A stretch of DNA of 40,193 bases from a virus. Lineage: Duplodnaviria; Heunggongvirae; Uroviricota; Caudoviricetes. The notes under the pieces are model-generated. The model saw nothing but the letters and a program-made list of their open reading frames with translations, ran no database searches and was not told the origin of the DNA. Below, piece after piece: positions 1 to 37,603 of this stretch. The position numbers and the translations under genes are program-made. The stretch lies in IMG/VR virus record IMGVR_UViG_2671180415_000005. One strand, given 5' to 3'. Numbering within the stretch: the first letter of the stretch is position 1; each line of letters begins with the position of its first letter.

Positions 1-61
1 GAACCGTTCTGACAGCTTCGGCTTTGAACTCTTTAGAGTAACGTTGGGTTTTTCTGCTCAT
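1..61 (-). CDS. IS3-family transposase OrfA, N-terminal fragment (continues beyond window start)
   Basis: Hand translation of minus strand from ATG at 61..59: MSRKTQRYSKEFKAEAVRTV; HTH-type OrfA N-terminus. Confidence 0.65.
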   Translation of the reverse strand, partial: MSRKTQRYSKEFKAEAVRTV

Positions 62-125
62 TATTAGCTCCTTCTGATGCCATTCTATTTCAGGAAGGAG
101 TGTCCGTTAAACTCAGGCTACCTCA
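1..125 (-). mobile_element. IS3-family insertion sequence, partial (terminal inverted repeat and 5' part of orfA; IS600-like by memory), runs off window
   Basis: Minus strand of 59..61 starts an ORF MSRKTQRYSKEFKAEAVRTV... typical of IS3-family OrfA, with AAGGAG Shine-Dalgarno upstream; element end reads 5'-TGAGGTAGCCTGAG on minus strand (TG terminus at 124..125); torZ reading frame stops exactly at this junction. Confidence 0.7.
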
Positions 126-190
126 CTTCTCTTCTGCCCATGCGGGGAGCGGTGCTGCCGATGTCACCACCTGCGCTCCAGCGGCAATAC
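126..190 (-). pseudogene. torZ: torZ internal fragment (about codons 13-34, Tat signal region), cut by prophage on one side and IS on the other
   Basis: Minus-strand translation SIAAGAQVVTSAAPLPAWAEEK followed immediately by IS terminus; joins in frame with the torZ start fragment at 38813..38854 once the prophage is removed. Confidence 0.7.
186..190. repeat. 5-bp target-site duplication AATAC (copy at prophage right-end junction in window left)
   Basis: AATAC at 186..190 and 38813..38817; removing 191..38812 plus one copy restores MTLTRREFIKHSGIAAGAQVV... in frame. Confidence 0.6.
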
Positions 191-207
191 TATAGCGCGG
201 CGATTTT

Positions 208-273
208 TTTGATACCGATTTGCATTTCATTTGATACCGCTGAAAAACGCCGATACGCAACTTATTTGATACT
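208..273. repeat. Three TTTGATAC(C/T) transposase-binding-like repeats at the mom-proximal (right) prophage end
   Basis: TTTGATACC at 208..216 and 230..238 (22 bp apart), TTTGATACT at 265..273; inverted copies GGTATCAAA occur at the other end. Confidence 0.6.
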
Positions 274-318
274 AAATCGGCGCTTTTCTTTTGAGTTTTA
301 GAATGAGTTTTTAAGCGT

Positions 319-1056
319 TCATTCACTCTCTTTCAAACCAGTTTTAACTGTTTGTGGTTTTGGGTAAGGCTGGACTTTGAATAGCTTTGTGTTAAGGCGT
401 TTTCTGGCTCTCTTGTCCAGAAACCGGATGTAACGAAACTGACGGAATTTATGAACACTGGCTCTGTCGATATTAGCCCGCAGATGTTCACCTCGCTGTC
501 CTCCTCGTTTGATTGCATTCTTGCAAATCTCGTGATACCACTCGCCATCAAGTTCATAGAATGTTGTTTCATGACTGCCTACATAATCAAAATTGCTTGC
601 CTGGTACACGACACCAAGACAGCCACAACGCTCATCTGCAAACGACTGAACCCACTGCACCTGCGGATAAAGTTGTCTGATTAGTTTGAGCGCGTAACTG
701 ATTGCCCTTGATTCGGAGTTTCTCGGCATACAGTCATGCAGCCATAACCGGTTAAGCTCCATATATTCGCGGTTCTGCGTGCCAGTTACGACGCGTGCAC
801 CATTGTTTGGATTAAGGGCATAACCCCATTGCATTACGCCAACCAGCTCCCGTTCTGAAAATATGCCCAGATGAAGGTAGGAATTATTTACGAAACGATG
901 GCTGTAATGTTTATTGACGACGACCAGCCGGGCCAGCCAGCAACTTATTGTCTCAACCCGTAACTCACGGGAGCCATAACCGACGATATTGTCGTTATAG
1001 TGAATAAGTTCAGGCGTGCTGATGATACGGGATGTAACTTGCTTTCTGTTCCCCAC
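319..1056 (-). CDS. mom: Mom-like DNA modification protein (start uncertain; candidate GTG at 1056, ORF is open up to 1251)
   Basis: Last gene before the prophage end, directly downstream of and overlapping a Com-like zinc-finger gene, as in Mu; AAGGAA 8 nt upstream of GTG; no direct sequence motif verified. Confidence 0.6.
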
Positions 1057-1210
1057 GACAGGATTTCCTTGTGTATGTGGGGTGCTCTGTGGCGCTCTGA
1101 GATGTGATTTGATTGAGGGTTTTACAGCGCGGACATTTAACTTCCAGATAACTGAAGCTGGCTCGTGCCAGTAGCTTGTTACAATGTCGGCACCGTATGT
1201 TTCGATACAT
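1010..1210 (-). CDS. com: Com-like zinc-finger translational activator of mom
   Basis: [34 protein letters not shown]... has the C-x2-C ... C-x2-C Com pattern (IRC.HCNKLL ... KCPRCK); overlaps mom 5' end; alternative upstream start at 1255. Confidence 0.8.
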
Positions 1211-1254
1211 GGCCGCATAACCTCCTGCTTTGTTGTTGATATCTTTATCACTCA

Positions 1255-1350
1255 ATCGATCGACAAAAACGATCGATTTGATTTATTTAATTGATACAAC
1301 AAATAACACGAAATGTCATTAGCGAAAATTTATGAGTTTGATCACTAATT
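1255..1350 (-). promoter_or_regulatory. Candidate Pmom-like regulatory region with clustered Dam GATC sites
   Basis: AT-rich; GATC at 1258, 1271 and 1340 immediately upstream of com on the minus strand; Mu Pmom is regulated by a Dam-methylated GATC cluster. Confidence 0.4.
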
Positions 1351-1466
1351 TTAAACGGTGCTGTAACGCATAAGTGCTGAATGATTGTACATTTGAATAC
1401 CGCAAAGCAAACAAATCAACTAATTTATAGAAGTCAATTGGTTAATTGCCAGCGTAAGAGGCTGCT

Positions 1467-1760
1467 ATGGACAATCATGTAACGACGAGAAATCGAAAAA
1501 TGATTGAAAATGCGGAAATCTATAATGATTATTTTTCCGATTATTCAGATGCCTGCAAATACAGTTCGAGTGCGGGAGAGTTCATATGCTTCAACTTTTT
1601 TATTAAATCTTATGTTTTTCCTCCACAGCAAGAAGATGGAGGTGTGCCACCTCCTGAAATCACTTTGCACCGTATAGCCTCCGTCTCAATGATGGAGCAA
1701 CAGGCTAATGAGCTGTATAGCATTCTGGGAACGATTCTACAAAAGCGTGAATCGGACTAA
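1467..1760 (+). CDS. Hypothetical protein (AT-rich cargo ORF, opposite strand to neighbours)
   Basis: 97-aa ORF with TAAGAGG Shine-Dalgarno before ATG at 1467; no recognisable motif. Confidence 0.4.
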   Translation: MDNHVTTRNRKMIENAEIYNDYFSDYSDACKYSSSAGEFICFNFFIKSYVFPPQQEDGGVPPPEITLHRIASVSMMEQQANELYSILGTILQKRESD

Positions 1761-1927
1761 TGATACCGGTTCATTTGCCTGCCCGGATGGGGAAGCAGGA
1801 TTGACTGCTCCATAAGCAGCTATATTTCTGAATACGAAATACTATCCAGCGATTACATATGGCTGGATAGCGGCAAAGATGTTTTCATTAGTGTCAAACC
1901 GGCAGAGGACACCACCGGTTTGTATTG

Positions 1928-2182
1928 TTACATCATGGTACTGTCAGTTCCGGGCTGAGCCGGGTCTGGTTGCTCTGGCTGCGCGTCGGTTTTCGGCTCA
2001 TTATCAGCATCACTGGCCGCAACTGCTGGCCCAATAAGTTTTGCCAGCACTTCATCAACGTAAGTGTCGATTTGTGCCTCAAAATCCTTGCGGACCTGCG
2101 CTTTCAGCAACTTATTTACTTCACCGGAATACAGTGCCTGTTTTACCAGGTCTTCAGTGACGGTGCCTTTAATTTCTGGCAT
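1928..2182 (-). CDS. Hypothetical acidic protein (cargo)
   Basis: 84-aa ORF co-directional with and downstream of the esterase gene; stem-loop AACCGG/CCGGTT at 1897..1920 just after its stop. Confidence 0.45.
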   Translation of the reverse strand: MPEIKGTVTEDLVKQALYSGEVNKLLKAQVRKDFEAQIDTYVDEVLAKLIGPAVAASDADNEPKTDAQPEQPDPAQPGTDSTMM

Positions 2183-2217
2183 GTATATCCTCCTTATGCG
2201 GGAATAAAGCCCTGCAA

Positions 2218-2412
2218 TCAGGGCTGGGTCGGGTCTTTTGGGAGCGGAGTTACCTGCGCTGTTTTACTGAGTTTTTCAGCTGCTGCGTCCTCAATTTTGC
2301 GGCGAACATAATTTCTGATGGCCTTATAACCACCACTCACCAGATATAACGCACATACTGCCGTGCAGAAATACAATAAAATAAGCTGTAAAAATGTCAT
2401 TATCCCTCCCAA
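2218..2412 (-). CDS. Small single-pass membrane protein (cargo)
   Basis: 64 aa; N-terminal hydrophobic stretch FLQLILLYFCTAVCALYLV then charged tail; GGGA Shine-Dalgarno-like sequence upstream. Confidence 0.5.
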   Translation of the reverse strand: MGGIMTFLQLILLYFCTAVCALYLVSGGYKAIRNYVRRKIEDAAAEKLSKTAQVTPLPKDPTQP

Positions 2413-2496
2413 TTATTGACATGGTGTTGACACCGGTAATATCTGTTAGGTAAAAAGGTGCACTGCATTTTTTGCTTTGGATATAACGATCTTTTT

Positions 2497-2539
2497 GCCG
2501 CCGGTTTCTTGTTTTCCCTTACCGGCGGCATTTTTTTAT
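2497..2539 (+). terminator. Intrinsic-terminator-like hairpin (plus-strand sense) between esterase and small membrane protein genes
   Basis: GCCGCCGGT (2497..2505) / ACCGGCGGC (2521..2529) stem followed by ATTTTTTTAT; two TTGACA hexamers at 2416 and 2427 lie upstream on the same strand. Confidence 0.45.
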
Positions 2540-4599: not shown

Positions 4600-4674
4600 C
4601 GTCTTTTCTGCCTGTTTCTGAATTAAACAGAGTCAGAATAGCGACCGCTGAAAAATATGTGTTTTGCGGAAATT

Positions 4675-4704
4675 CAAAAAAGCGTCACGGTACTTTTGGT
4701 GACG
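4675..4704 (-). terminator. Intrinsic terminator after gin (minus-strand sense)
   Basis: Stem CGTCAC (4683..4688) / GTGACG (4699..4704) followed on the minus-strand RNA by CUUUUUUG; overlaps gin stop codon. Confidence 0.5.
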
Positions 4705-5257
4705 GAGCTGGTGAGGCAGGAAAATAACGATAAAGGGTGGAAAGGCCAATATCAAATATCAGTGCGATTTGTTTACGGGACTCGCCATTAGCCAGCAAAC
4801 GGGCGATTTGCTCCCGCTCTTTCTCTGTCAGTTTCTGAGGTCTGCCGCCATGACGCCCCTGAGCACGGGCAGCAGCAAGACCCGCGCGTGTACGTTCAAT
4901 AATGAGTTCCCGCTCCATTTCCGCCAGCGCGCCCATTATATGGAAAAAGAAACGTCCCATGGGAGTGGATGTATCAATATTGTCCGTAATGCTGCGGAAG
5001 TTAACGCCGCGTTGCCGGAGTTCTTCTGTTAAAAGGACAAGGTGCTGCATACTGCGTCCAAGGCGATCCAGTTTCCAGACCAGCAGGGTATCCCCTGGCC
5101 GGAGTCGCTTTAATGCGCGTTTAAGTCCGGGACGCTCCCTTGTCTTACCGCTTATTCTGTCTTCGAAAAACAGCTCACATCCTGCACATTCCAGCGCATT
5201 TCTTTGTAGCGCCGTATTCTGGTCATTTGTTGACACCCTGATATACCCAATCAGCAT
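4685..5257 (-). CDS. gin: Gin-family serine DNA invertase
   Basis: MLIGYIRVSTNDQNTALQRNA...DTLLVWKLDRLGRSMQHL...MGRFFFHIMGALAEMERELIIERT is near-identical in pattern to Mu Gin/Hin/Pin/Cin; adjacent to invertible tail-fiber segment. Confidence 0.95.
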   Translation of the reverse strand: MLIGYIRVSTNDQNTALQRNALECAGCELFFEDRISGKTRERPGLKRALKRLRPGDTLLVWKLDRLGRSMQHLVLLTEELRQRGVNFRSITDNIDTSTPMGRFFFHIMGALAEMERELIIERTRAGLAAARAQGRHGGRPQKLTEKEREQIARLLANGESRKQIALIFDIGLSTLYRYFPASPAPSPKVP

Positions 5258-20595: not shown

Positions 20596-20772
20596 ACCGG
20601 CAGCATAAGCCGGGTATTTTTGGGGCTGGTTTTGCGGGACTTCAGAAAGTGCTGACAGGGGGGGAATGAGAAAGGCGCTTCACGCAGATTTTAAAGCCCG
20701 TTAAATACAGGTTAGAAAATCACGACACGCGCCTGAAGGGGGTAAGGTAATACGTTTGCATACCTTAAACCA

Positions 20773-28757: not shown

Positions 28758-28828
28758 TGTTACGCTGTCTCATGGTGTTCTCTGAGTCAGCGTAACCGTG
28801 GGAAAAAGTGGGCAGGATTTGCGGAATA

Positions 28829-29251
28829 TCAGAAAAGCCGTGGCTGCGTGCGTTCCTGATGCAGGCGACGCTGGTTGCGGATAACGGAGTAAATCTGCGT
28901 CTCTGACATCTGGTAGTGGCGGCGCAGGGTTTCAATTTTTTCGCCCTGGCTCCAGCGGGAAAAAATTTCATTATTGCGCAGTTCGGTGAAAAGGGATTCA
29001 CCGACCGGGAGATAATAACCACGCCCGCCCATGTACCCGGCCTGTGCGGCTGCAACCTTACGGGCAAGCATTCCCGCCTGAGCAGGTTCAATCCCCTGAC
29101 GGTGCAGTTCAGCACTGATCACATCAACCAGGTCCCGCAGCGTGCCGGGCCAGTTCTTTTTCAGCTCATCATCAGGAATATCATCCAGACGGTCAATCAG
29201 CGCGTGCAGCTGTTCGCTGTCACCAAACATGCTCATCTGTGTTTCAGCCAT
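28829..29251 (-). CDS. Mor/C-family transcriptional activator (middle/late gene activator)
   Basis: 140 aa; C-terminal ...GGRGYYLPVGESLFTELRNNEIFSRW...MSETQIYSVIRNQRR matches Mor/C family pattern; sits immediately upstream of lys. Confidence 0.75.
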   Translation of the reverse strand: MAETQMSMFGDSEQLHALIDRLDDIPDDELKKNWPGTLRDLVDVISAELHRQGIEPAQAGMLARKVAAAQAGYMGGRGYYLPVGESLFTELRNNEIFSRWSQGEKIETLRRHYQMSETQIYSVIRNQRRLHQERTQPRLF

Positions 29252-34381: not shown

Positions 34382-34640
34382 NNNNNNNNNNNNNNNNNNN
34401 NNNNNNNNNNNNNNNNNNNNNNNNNNNNNNNNNNNNNNNNNNNNNNNNNNNNNNNNNNNNNNNNNNNNNNNNNNNNNNNNNNNNNNNNNNNNNNNNNNNN
34501 NNNNNNNNNNNNNNNNNNNNNNNNNNNNNNNNNNNNNNNNNNNNNNNNNNNNNNNNNNNNNNNNNNNNNNNNNNNNNNNNNNNNNNNNNNNNNNNNNNNN
34601 NNNNNNNNNNNNNNNNNNNNNNNNNNNNNNNNNNNNNNNN
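34382..34640. other. Assembly gap (259 N)
   Basis: Run of N in the sequence; interrupts the 3' end of the B-like gene. Confidence 1.
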
Positions 34641-35515: not shown

Positions 35516-37603
35516 TCAGGCCAGCGGATCACTTTCTTTTAATTTCGCTTCGAGCAGTTGCAATCCCCGCTGGAAATTACGCTCGTATTCTTCATCAGGT
35601 TCATCGTCAGCGACCGGTTGCTGAACGGTCACCGTATTACCCACAGGGCGGTATATGTTTTCCAGCCAGGGCTCCTGCGGCTTGTGCTCCAGCACGTTGA
35701 CAACCTCATCCTCGGCATCACGGATTTTTTCCTCTGCGCGTTTACGCATGCCTTTAAGGCGCTGCTGCTGTTTGTAGTATTCCGCGCTGACAGGGAAGGC
35801 TTCGCGTTTATTGCCGTCCCATACCGCCTCGCAAATCACGCTGCCATCCGGGCGGCGCACGGTAATTCGTTCGGCATCATGAATGTCATAGCTGATAAGT
35901 ACCTTACGGCCATGCTCGTCACGCAGCTCGGGCGCGTAGTAAATATTATTCAGCCAGCGTATTTCACAGCGTCTTACAGGGCGCTCCACCATCGGCCGGA
36001 ACATATCCCGCAGTTCAACATCGGACAGCCATTCAATTTCCGTGTCCTCTTCCGCCAGGCGTTTTTTTCTGAACTCCGCCGGGCTGTAATGTTTACCGTT
36101 CGGCTTCATGGGTAATTCATCGTGCGGCCGGTTGTTGTACCACTCAACACCGTCACGAATGGCATCAATCAGTTCAGACCAGGACGGTAAATCACGCATC
36201 GCTGACTGCTGCCGGGCGTTCAGCCGTTTGCCCTGTTGCAGGGCACTGAATGCCGAGCGTAAATCGCGGTTGGTTTTACGTAACGTCTCGCGATCTGCTC
36301 CTTTCCCGAAATAGGTGCGGTATTTACGGGCTATGCGCATCGGTAATGTGCGGTTAAGCCGTTCGATAATGCCCCGTCCCTGCGGATTACCGGCAATCCC
36401 TGTCGGGTGATTAATCCCCAGTCGTGGCAGTATCCCCACAATCTCCTTATCCAGGACGTCGGCGGTTTCCCCGGAGCCATTATCCGAGTAATACAGAAAC
36501 GGTTTGCCATGATGGCGAATACCGTGCTGTATGGCACCGGCTACGGCGAAAACATTTTCAGCCAGGTCAAGGCTCCAGCCCACCACAAAGCGCGTGCCAC
36601 CGTCGATAACAAAGGTCACTTCCGGTGCGAATGGCCGCCCGTGAACCGGGTGCGCGCATTTCAGCTTCATGCCGTGACCGTCACCAATCCAGACATAATT
36701 CACCGGCATTCTGGACCAGTCGCGGCGCGTGAATCCCTCAAGCTGACGGTATTCACTGCCAGTTACCCGGCCTTTTTGTTTCACCACTTCCGGCAGTTTC
36801 TTCATTGCGCGGCGAATGGTGTCATAAGAGGGCATGATATCGAGCATATAAGGCTCATCAGCGTGCCGGTGCTGCCATTCAGCAACAAAATCCTCGTAAG
36901 CCTCGGTCATTGGTCGGCCGTTTGACTGGCGATACTGCGCCAGAAATTCGGGCAGCCAGTTAATATCTTCGGCTTTTATTTCCTGGCGTTTACCCGGTGC
37001 CAGTAAAAGCAGGCGTTCAGCGGCGTTCTGTGCCTTGTTAAAGGCCGCAATCCAGCGTTTCAGCGTGATTTCACTCAACGCGCGGCTGTTTCCCTTTTTG
37101 GCGTTCGCCGTCTCAACCATTGCCACAATGCGCTCGTCCAGTTGTGATCGTGCCAGGCTGTTAACGAGGAACCGGATAGCTTTAGCGCAGCTGAAACCGG
37201 GTTGTTGCGTGAATTTCAGCACCTCACTGACGATCGCAATGCGTGCGTCTGCCACCTGGCGCTGGTTTTCAGTCAGGGCATTGAGGCGTTCGACCATCAG
37301 TTGTGGTGATCCGCGATATGCCTCCACCGCATCAACCACGGCAGACGAGCGTCTGGCCTTTGTCACCACCGGAGCCGGTGATTCATCGGCTTTTTGCGTC
37401 ATCAGTTGCAGGGCATAACGTTCGCGTAATGCCTGCTGTGTCACTTCAGGTAAACAGTCAATGCTGTATTCAAAACCTTTAGCGCCTTTCTTGCGGCGTC
37501 TGCTGGTTTCGCTGGTTGCATACTTCCTGATTGAATAGCGAACGCCTTGCTCCGTTCCCGGCATCCCCGGTAATCCAACCAGTTCTTTAACTGAAGCAAA
37601 CAT
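35516..37603 (-). CDS. A: Mu A-like DDE transposase
   Basis: 695 aa directly after ner-like gene; size and position of MuA; large central catalytic region. Confidence 0.9.
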   Translation of the reverse strand: MFASVKELVGLPGMPGTEQGVRYSIRKYATSETSRRRKKGAKGFEYSIDCLPEVTQQALRERYALQLMTQKADESPAPVVTKARRSSAVVDAVEAYRGSPQLMVERLNALTENQRQVADARIAIVSEVLKFTQQPGFSCAKAIRFLVNSLARSQLDERIVAMVETANAKKGNSRALSEITLKRWIAAFNKAQNAAERLLLLAPGKRQEIKAEDINWLPEFLAQYRQSNGRPMTEAYEDFVAEWQHRHADEPYMLDIMPSYDTIRRAMKKLPEVVKQKGRVTGSEYRQLEGFTRRDWSRMPVNYVWIGDGHGMKLKCAHPVHGRPFAPEVTFVIDGGTRFVVGWSLDLAENVFAVAGAIQHGIRHHGKPFLYYSDNGSGETADVLDKEIVGILPRLGINHPTGIAGNPQGRGIIERLNRTLPMRIARKYRTYFGKGADRETLRKTNRDLRSAFSALQQGKRLNARQQSAMRDLPSWSELIDAIRDGVEWYNNRPHDELPMKPNGKHYSPAEFRKKRLAEEDTEIEWLSDVELRDMFRPMVERPVRRCEIRWLNNIYYAPELRDEHGRKVLISYDIHDAERITVRRPDGSVICEAVWDGNKREAFPVSAEYYKQQQRLKGMRKRAEEKIRDAEDEVVNVLEHKPQEPWLENIYRPVGNTVTVQQPVADDEPDEEYERNFQRGLQLLEAKLKESDPLA

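Follow-up and report, generated by a model that had tools for sequence, protein, structure and literature searches.

A com-mom operon in a Mu-like Escherichia coli prophage with a conserved Com switch and a candidate two-GATC operator of the OxyR type

In bacteriophage Mu, Com binds the loop of an RNA hairpin carrying the motif CC(N)2-3GAG, which lies beside a translation-inhibition hairpin with the GUG start codon of mom in its stem (PMC6483171), and the mom promoter, Pmom, has weak features and depends on the activator C (PMC3378877). The enzyme Mom moves glycine from Gly-tRNA(Gly) onto N6 of adenine in double-stranded DNA to give 6-NcmdA; R111, S124 and R151, plus D149, H58, Y59, Y159, W48 and W181, are its important residues, and a helix-turn-helix-like (HTH-like) insertion has been described in it (PMC13219725). 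In the gtr system of P22, GATC pairs of 13 bp lie inside single OxyR half-sites, and methylation abolishes OxyR binding; GATC3 is located at -46 and GATC4 at -33 (PMC2909390). Mu-like phages of the SP18 type have already been noted to encode Mom and its regulators, and Com-type control has been proposed for cassettes that combine com with a methyltransferase gene other than mom (PMC3299994). Here, positions 319 to 1350 of the virus record IMGVR_UViG_2671180415_000005 were analyzed; the whole stretch of 40,193 nucleotides is called the window, and positions are counted along it. With a probability of roughly 80%, the region analyzed belongs to a Mu-like transposable prophage of E. coli and forms the com-mom operon of its right end, with the Com switch intact and, less certainly, with a two-GATC operator of the OxyR type placed nearer to com than in Mu.

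Both genes are found on the minus strand and overlap by 47 nt (1056..1010); an overlap of a Com-type zinc-finger open reading frame (ORF) with the 5′ region of mom had been described in the initial annotation:

mom: 319..1056, minus strand; GTG start at 1056..1054, stop at 319, 245 aa.
com: 1010..1210, minus strand; ATG at 1210, TGA at 1012..1010, 66 aa, a CCCC zinc ribbon containing KCPRCK.
Shine-Dalgarno (SD) sequence of com: 1221..1226, minus strand; AGGAGG, a sequence reading.

Both gene identities are solid by homology, the earlier assignment of the frames to Com and Mom being borne out by Pfam, PHROG, PDB and BLASTP matches. The com product, predicted to be a small zinc-ribbon translational activator of mom, matches Pfam PF10122 (Zn_ribbon_Com) at 7.5e-13 (48.2 bits, cutoff 22.9) and phrog_13819, 'gpCom', at 2.9e-13; it is 45% identical to Mu Com, and its C7, C10, C27 and C30 align with the Mu Com cysteines. 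The mom product is predicted to be a GNAT-fold tRNA(Gly)-dependent adenine aminoacyltransferase, whose 6-NcmdA mark would block many restriction enzymes. A profile search of the 245-aa product against the Mom family returned PF25680 at 7.8e-78 (261.2 bits, cutoff 27.1, profile positions 1-202 of 202), and matches were also found to phrog_1384 (2.8e-83) and to PDB 8bv8, the solved Mu Mom chain (2.4e-123), the latter being ungapped over residues 5-233 and spanning the HTH-like insertion (about residues 175-209). In a pairwise alignment the protein is 78% identical to Mu Mom, and the equivalents of W48, H58, Y59, R111, S124, D149, R151, Y159 and W181 are all identical; these published numbers count from an ATG ten codons upstream of the GUG, which corresponds to the 231-aa numbering plus 10. 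The blocks that hold these residues read ELNRLW, NSESRA, FADER, GVVYQ, KHYS, CWLA and GEWYHE. The NCBIfam models gave no above-threshold match for either Mom or Com.

The start of mom was placed by the initial annotation at the GTG at 1056, inside com and preceded by AAGGAA. This codon is homologous to the GUG start of Mu and is also the RefSeq start, and its SD sequence AAGGAA is located at 1070..1065, with an 8-nt spacing to the GTG. RefSeq annotates identical coordinates in an identical prophage, with the products named 'tRNA(Gly)-dependent adenine aminoacyltransferase Mom' (WP_000528246.1) and 'Com family' (WP_014334043.1); the full name of the latter, 'Com family DNA-binding transcriptional regulator', is misleading when set against the RNA-binding translational activator of the experimental literature. 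An extended Mom beginning at ATG 1218, in the same frame, was considered and rejected: this ATG follows the com SD by only 2 nt, and the open frame is not conserved, reaching 65 codons beyond the GTG in the upstream direction in the window as compared to 27 in the O157 type and 10 in Mu. The AGGAGG of com itself is invariant across the sequence family of the window, with the single exception of L023, which reads AGAAGG.

A start-sequestering hairpin exists and is conserved, and it lies next to a candidate Com target:

Com target: 1084..1095, minus strand; short hairpin with the loop CC-ACA-GAG (1092..1085), fitting the published CC(N)2-3GAG motif.
Translation-inhibition hairpin: 1051..1082, minus strand; CCCCAC (1082..1077) pairs with GUGGGG (1056..1051), with N20 between them.

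The inhibition hairpin encloses the mom SD AAGGAA, the GG of which is paired in an inner stem, and the GUG start lies within the stem. Its minimum free energy is -12.6 kcal/mol (z -2.26), with 8 of 200 shuffled sequences equally good, and the equivalent Mu hairpin folds alike (-9.5 kcal/mol, z -3.0). Folding z-scores across ∼100 nt were not significant (-0.25 for the window, -0.66 for Mu), and only the local hairpin stands out. In an alignment of 10 distinct homologues, the six-pair inhibition stem is paired in 100% of cells. Six of the sequences close the stem with C-G and four with U-A, the exchange falling on third codon positions that are synonymous in the com frame (CAC/CAU) as well as in the mom frame (GGG/GGA). 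For the Com-target helix the same alignment gives 86.7% pairing, with compensatory changes in all three of its pairs. Shifting the 3′ partners by 1 to 3 columns lowers pairing from 95.6% to 32-61%.

The elements also occur away from mom. In E. coli SW070917 (NZ_CM129862.1, L085 2501-3802), a window-type regulatory region, com, the Com-target and inhibitory hairpins and the sequence 'GTG GGG AAC' lead into a C5-cytosine DNA methyltransferase (PF00145 at 1.6e-42), which stands in place of mom and is joined ∼5 codons in. This fusion of the com/hairpin/GTG cassette to another enzyme indicates that the cassette is a portable functional unit and that the GUG is a start codon, and the Com switch looks like a portable cassette for various DNA-modification enzymes. 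Judged from these conserved elements, the Com-dependent translational switch is kept intact at this locus: as in Mu, Com made from the same transcript would bind the CC-ACA-GAG loop, upon which the inhibitory hairpin at 1082..1051 would open and Mom would be translated.

Other leaders are seen where com is missing. Among the IMG/VR contigs L049-L082, L049, L052 and others carry mom homologues that lack both com and GATC clusters and have another leader hairpin ∼60 nt upstream; these hairpins seemingly sequester the SD (GUACACCAA...UUGGAGUAC in L049, GCACACC...GGAGUGC in L052) and look compensatory. In L075, the 3′ end of a tRNA lies ∼25 nt upstream of mom.

Upstream of com, three GATC sites had been read as a cluster signifying that the epigenetic control of Mu is retained. 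The sites are indeed found, at 1258, 1271 and 1340, with no other GATC within 1 to 2487, in a spacer (1211..1466) of 34% GC as compared to 53% for the window; however, only 1271 and 1258 are homologous to Mu sites, and the triple itself is within chance expectation. The relevant features are:

Inverted repeat: 1254..1278; AATCGATCG-N7-CGATCGATT, with two conserved Dam sites (1258-1261 and 1271-1274).
Third GATC: 1340..1343; not conserved.
Candidate full OxyR site: 1259..1295, minus strand; 37 bp with two half-sites, 13/20 against ATAGnTnnnAnCTAT-N7-ATAGnTnnnAnCTAT.

Under random placement of the 120 GATC sites, 3.4 triples spanning no more than 86 bp are expected and two are present in the window, and GATC pairs no more than 14 bp apart number five as compared to 5.1 expected. 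The statistical significance of a three-GATC cluster (within 82 bp) was rejected on these counts, triples and close pairs being no commoner than chance. What does go beyond chance is the inverted-repeat form of the 1258/1271 pair, together with the GATC-N9-GATC spacing kept across diverged relatives. The segment 1254..1278 is a perfect 9-bp inverted repeat with the two GATCs as its cores, and in Mu and about eight other com-mom lineages of the Enterobacterales the GATC-N9-GATC spacing is invariant while the intervening nine bases vary freely. The pair is not present in the com-mom loci of Neptunomonas, Endobugula, Parathalassolituus, Maridesulfovibrio or alphaproteobacteria. Sites II and III of Mu have their homologues in 1271 and 1258, and across the Enterobacterales the conserved Dam element appears as the GATC-N9-GATC pair, not as a triplet. 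GATC 1340 lies 69 bp from the pair and outside the homology with roughly 200 O157-type copies, which ends at 1305; it is absent from the L012-L025 sister copies and present only in L020 and identical copies.

The repeat at 1254..1278 resembles, in sequence, one OxyR half-site. Within the spacer, the window type and the O157 type agree best over the block 1305..1254, and the OxyR consensus is matched at 13 of 20 positions at 1295..1259, which equals the score of the Mu GATC-cluster region and is reached at only three positions in 40 kb, as a crude count in AT-rich DNA. The GATC-N9-GATC repeat may, with lower certainty, be part of an OxyR-type operator at 1295..1259, the occupancy of which Dam methylation would prevent, as in Mu, with two methylation sites here and not three. 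Control of com-mom by Dam and OxyR, rearranged as compared to Mu, is therefore plausible rather than established in its details, and the epigenetic control first proposed is only partly supported: a conserved, putative two-GATC operator of OxyR-like form remains, the third GATC is probably incidental, and the placement with respect to the promoter is not that of Mu.

The palindrome was also considered as a terminator. The intrinsic terminator flagged at 1254..1278 on the plus strand was rejected, that strand being antisense to com with no gene ending there, and a terminator in the sense of com was rejected because no U-run follows the repeat. In two Symbiopectobacterium loci with mom and no com (L089 and L091), a GATC-N27-GATC-N9-GATC trio followed by ATAAAG is found 20-85 nt upstream of mom, with the trio ending ∼20 nt before the mom ATG; its presence at a mom gene lacking com indicates that the Dam-site pair travels with mom even without the Com layer.

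The position of the pair relative to the promoter sets the locus apart from Mu. In Mu, with the promoter placed by means of the GenBank annotation and the sequence, the proximal GATC precedes the C site (TTAT-N6-ATAA), then a weak -35, ACCACA, and TAAGAT after a 19-bp spacer that contains a T6 run. The proximal GATC (GATC III) lies 47 nt from the com ATG in the window and 73 nt from it in Mu, and no TTAT-N6-ATAA, Mu -35 or equivalent of the 19-bp spacer is found upstream of com. The operator would accordingly be about 26-29 bp closer to com and would overlap the core promoter, instead of sitting upstream of a C site as in Mu. Two promoter models and the activator gene bear on this layout:

Candidate -10 (downstream model): 1241..1250, minus strand; TGATAAAGAT, which would set +1 near 1234 and place the GATCs around -27 and -40.
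Alternative promoter: 1291..1325, minus strand; TCGCTAA (1325..1319), N22, TATCAA (1296..1291), proposed for its likeness to the prophage late promoters.
C homologue: 28829..29251, minus strand; Mor/C family, 140 aa, phrog_532 'late transcriptional activator' at 1.4e-44, 40% identical to Mu C.

Retention of Mu-type C activation, as first claimed, proved overstated: the C gene is present, and upstream of com there is neither a Mu-type C site nor a clear box. Three leftward genes of the prophage (lysozyme, protease and DUF6645) are preceded by CCGCAAA-N22/23-TAYKCT, which is probably the late-promoter box recognized by the C homologue of this prophage and which differs from the Mu late-promoter sequences. 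These boxes, at 28824..28818, 20637..20631 and 4669..4663 on the minus strand, precede the lysozyme, head protease and DUF6645 tail-fibre-like operons and have a TTTCTGA/TTTGAAT-like flank; those of lysozyme and protease have a 23-nt spacing and were found by direct reading, having been missed by a pattern search for CCGCAAA-N22-TANNCT. By its sequence context, C dependence of com-mom is left without support beyond the C gene itself.

Regulation exactly as in Mu, with three Dam sites and a single OxyR operator upstream of a C-activated promoter, is improbable on this evidence. Such an arrangement would account for three GATCs in an AT-rich spacer, for the C homologue encoded by the prophage, and for the two proximal GATCs being homologous, flanks included, to sites II and III of Mu. 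Against it stand the distance of GATC 1340 from the pair, its place outside the conserved segment and its absence from sister copies, the replacement of Mu site I by GTATC, a spacer to com that is 26 nt shorter with neither TTAT-N6-ATAA nor a clear CCGCAAA box, and the expectation of a GATC triple of such a span by chance.

Of the two promoter models, the downstream one is favored but unproven. Its -10 lies 30 nt from the com ATG, as compared to 28 nt in Mu, and at the same offset L028-L030 have TATACT or TATAGT, and L089 and L091 have ATAAAG. A promoter upstream of the palindrome (TCGCTAA-N22-TATCAA, with +1 near 1284) would instead put the repeat within the 5′ untranslated region or the first part to be transcribed (about +11 to +24), where it could act as a downstream operator, a roadblock or an RNA hairpin. 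This arrangement resembles the CCGCAAA-N22/23-TAYKCT layout of the prophage, its TATCAA falls within an invariant 20-mer of the family, and the palindrome folds well as RNA (-11.7 kcal/mol, z -2.9). It is nonetheless unlikely: the box agrees in only 5 of 7 positions, has no extended TTTCTGA/TTTGAAT flank and is not conserved, with O157-type copies reading TTGTTGA; the invariant 20-mer could just as well be the other OxyR half-site and has a homologous counterpart upstream of Pmom in Mu; and the good -10 hexamers of L028-L030 lie downstream of the GATC pair. In either promoter model, a protein occupying the repeat in its unmethylated state would cover the core promoter or lie immediately downstream of it.

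The same geometry invites a reader other than OxyR, with methylation acting on RNA polymerase at the -35 or spacer, or with SeqA sequestering the hemimethylated pair. With the downstream promoter the pair would come to lie near -40 and -27, OxyR-like half-site A scores only 6/10, and two GATCs 13 bp apart would fit the requirement of SeqA. The homologous pair of Mu is however located in the region where OxyR acts, and the window site scores the same as the Mu GATC-cluster region, which makes a non-OxyR reader rather unlikely.

If an OxyR-type operator does lie at the core promoter, it could be supposed that in this lineage the Dam-sensitive operator moved onto the core promoter while the C site was lost, with transcription set mainly by methylation of the two GATCs and by OxyR, as in P22 gtr and agn43. 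This is a speculative proposal and quite improbable; if true, it could allow a heritable on/off, phase-variable anti-restriction hypermodification in lysogens in place of strictly late, C-dependent expression.

Several points weigh against an intact Com switch combined with a two-GATC operator near com. The third site, GATC 1340, is probably incidental, and Mu site I has no counterpart, the window reading GTATC beside the shared ATCAATTAAAT. The OxyR score comes from a crude counting of consensus matches in AT-rich sequence, and the covariation in the hairpins may reflect few evolutionary events, even one, which makes it supportive rather than proof. Upstream of com, the only trace of an activator box is the degenerate TCGCTAA (5/7 positions), which lies in a non-conserved stretch. 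Because close relatives vary in the putative patch, the -10 assignment is weak. Scanned for a sigma-70 consensus, the region upstream of com gave nothing on the com strand, a result that is uninformative because the same scan misses the known Pmom of Mu. Finally, expression, Com binding, OxyR binding and Dam dependence at the locus are all inferred.

The setting of the operon agrees with a Mu-like prophage: the surrounding 39 kb encode a transposase, Gam, a Mor/C activator, Mu-type head and tail genes, and a Gin-like invertase. The com-mom variant is present in 233 of 5426 complete E. coli genomes (at least 90% identity; range 90-100%). That the module is a silent relic, no longer expressed, is highly improbable; while no promoter can be assigned confidently and a masked stretch limits how prophage completeness can be judged, both ORFs are intact, every catalytic and zinc-binding residue is kept, the RNA elements are conserved, and the variant recurs in the 233 genomes.

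Several further observations concern the neighborhood. The segment 1467..5257 places ∼3.4 kb between com and the Gin-like invertase (about 4685..5257) that is not in Mu, where gin directly adjoins the mom promoter; this ∼3.4-kb segment holds a 684-aa DUF6645 protein, DUF1378, DUF826 and a small opposite-strand ORF. The small ORF runs from 1467 (RefSeq ATG 1500) to 1760 on the plus strand, divergent from com, and has no Pfam, PHROG or NCBIfam match; a good late-box copy, TTTGAATACCGCAAA (1392..1406), lies ∼60 nt upstream of it, and it may be a C-dependent late gene. An Rfam scan of 1..2500 matched 0 families. At the start of the window, bases 1..129 match an IS-like sequence common in Stx phages, and identity with other insertion sites of the prophage begins at ∼191 (TATAGCGCGG...). 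Three TTTGATAC(C/T) repeats at 208..216, 230..238 and 265..273 are plausibly transposase end-binding sites. A run of N (masked or unknown bases) occupies about 34382..34640 in the prophage early region. Beyond about 38900, the left-end and flanking sequence has no match in NZ_OZ547136.1, a record whose prophage is otherwise near-identical: of exact 30-mers sampled at 50-base intervals from 38901 on, none was found there, and the early end or the insertion site therefore differs.

Prior knowledge and annotation already cover the com-mom genes, their overlap, the GUG start and the hairpin that sequesters it. In Mu, the genes, overlap and control are textbook material, and annotations of precisely this variant exist in hundreds of E. 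coli genomes, the Sp18-type prophage of O157 among them. What is added is modest, namely a portable cassette of Com target, inhibitory hairpin and GUG, a GATC pair in place of a triplet, and a promoter layout unlike that of Mu. These additions matter only for the study of mom regulation or of the timing of Mom toxicity in lysogens.

Among described systems, cassettes such as FluMu hin1523, Pnme1 nma1821 and Hia5 share with the window a com gene and a downstream overlapping DNA-modification gene, while the window enzyme, unlike that of the cassettes of com and a methyltransferase, is a true Mom. The P22 gtr and agn43 switches have, like the window, GATC pairs 13 bp apart, which in these switches lie inside an OxyR half-site overlapping the promoter region; they differ in controlling phase-variable host or prophage surface genes and in having three half-sites with two alternative OxyR positions, whereas one candidate full site is seen in the window. 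The Sp18-type Mu-like prophage of E. coli O157:H7 and relatives, for which RefSeq likewise gives Mom and Com, matches at 94-95% identity between 1305 and the end of mom, with a difference in the 16-nt patch 1253..1238; upstream of 1305 its sequence is unrelated, which makes GATC 1340 specific to the subtype of the window. In Mu (AF083977; com 35768..35956, mom 35907..36602), the operon likewise occupies the genome's right end. The window lacks the T6 run and the ACCACA -35 of Mu, its Mom has a 12-aa C-terminal extension, and gin is not adjacent to com, the two being ∼3.4 kb apart. Gene order is the same, with a com/mom overlap of 50 nt in Mu and 47 nt here; a GUG GG(A/G) start lies within a CCCAC/GUGGG hairpin in both, with CC(N)3GAG just 5′ of it, and both carry the GATC-N9-GATC inverted repeat flanked as aatcGATC...GATCgatt, which in Mu is formed by sites II and III as AATCGATC-N9-GATCGATT.

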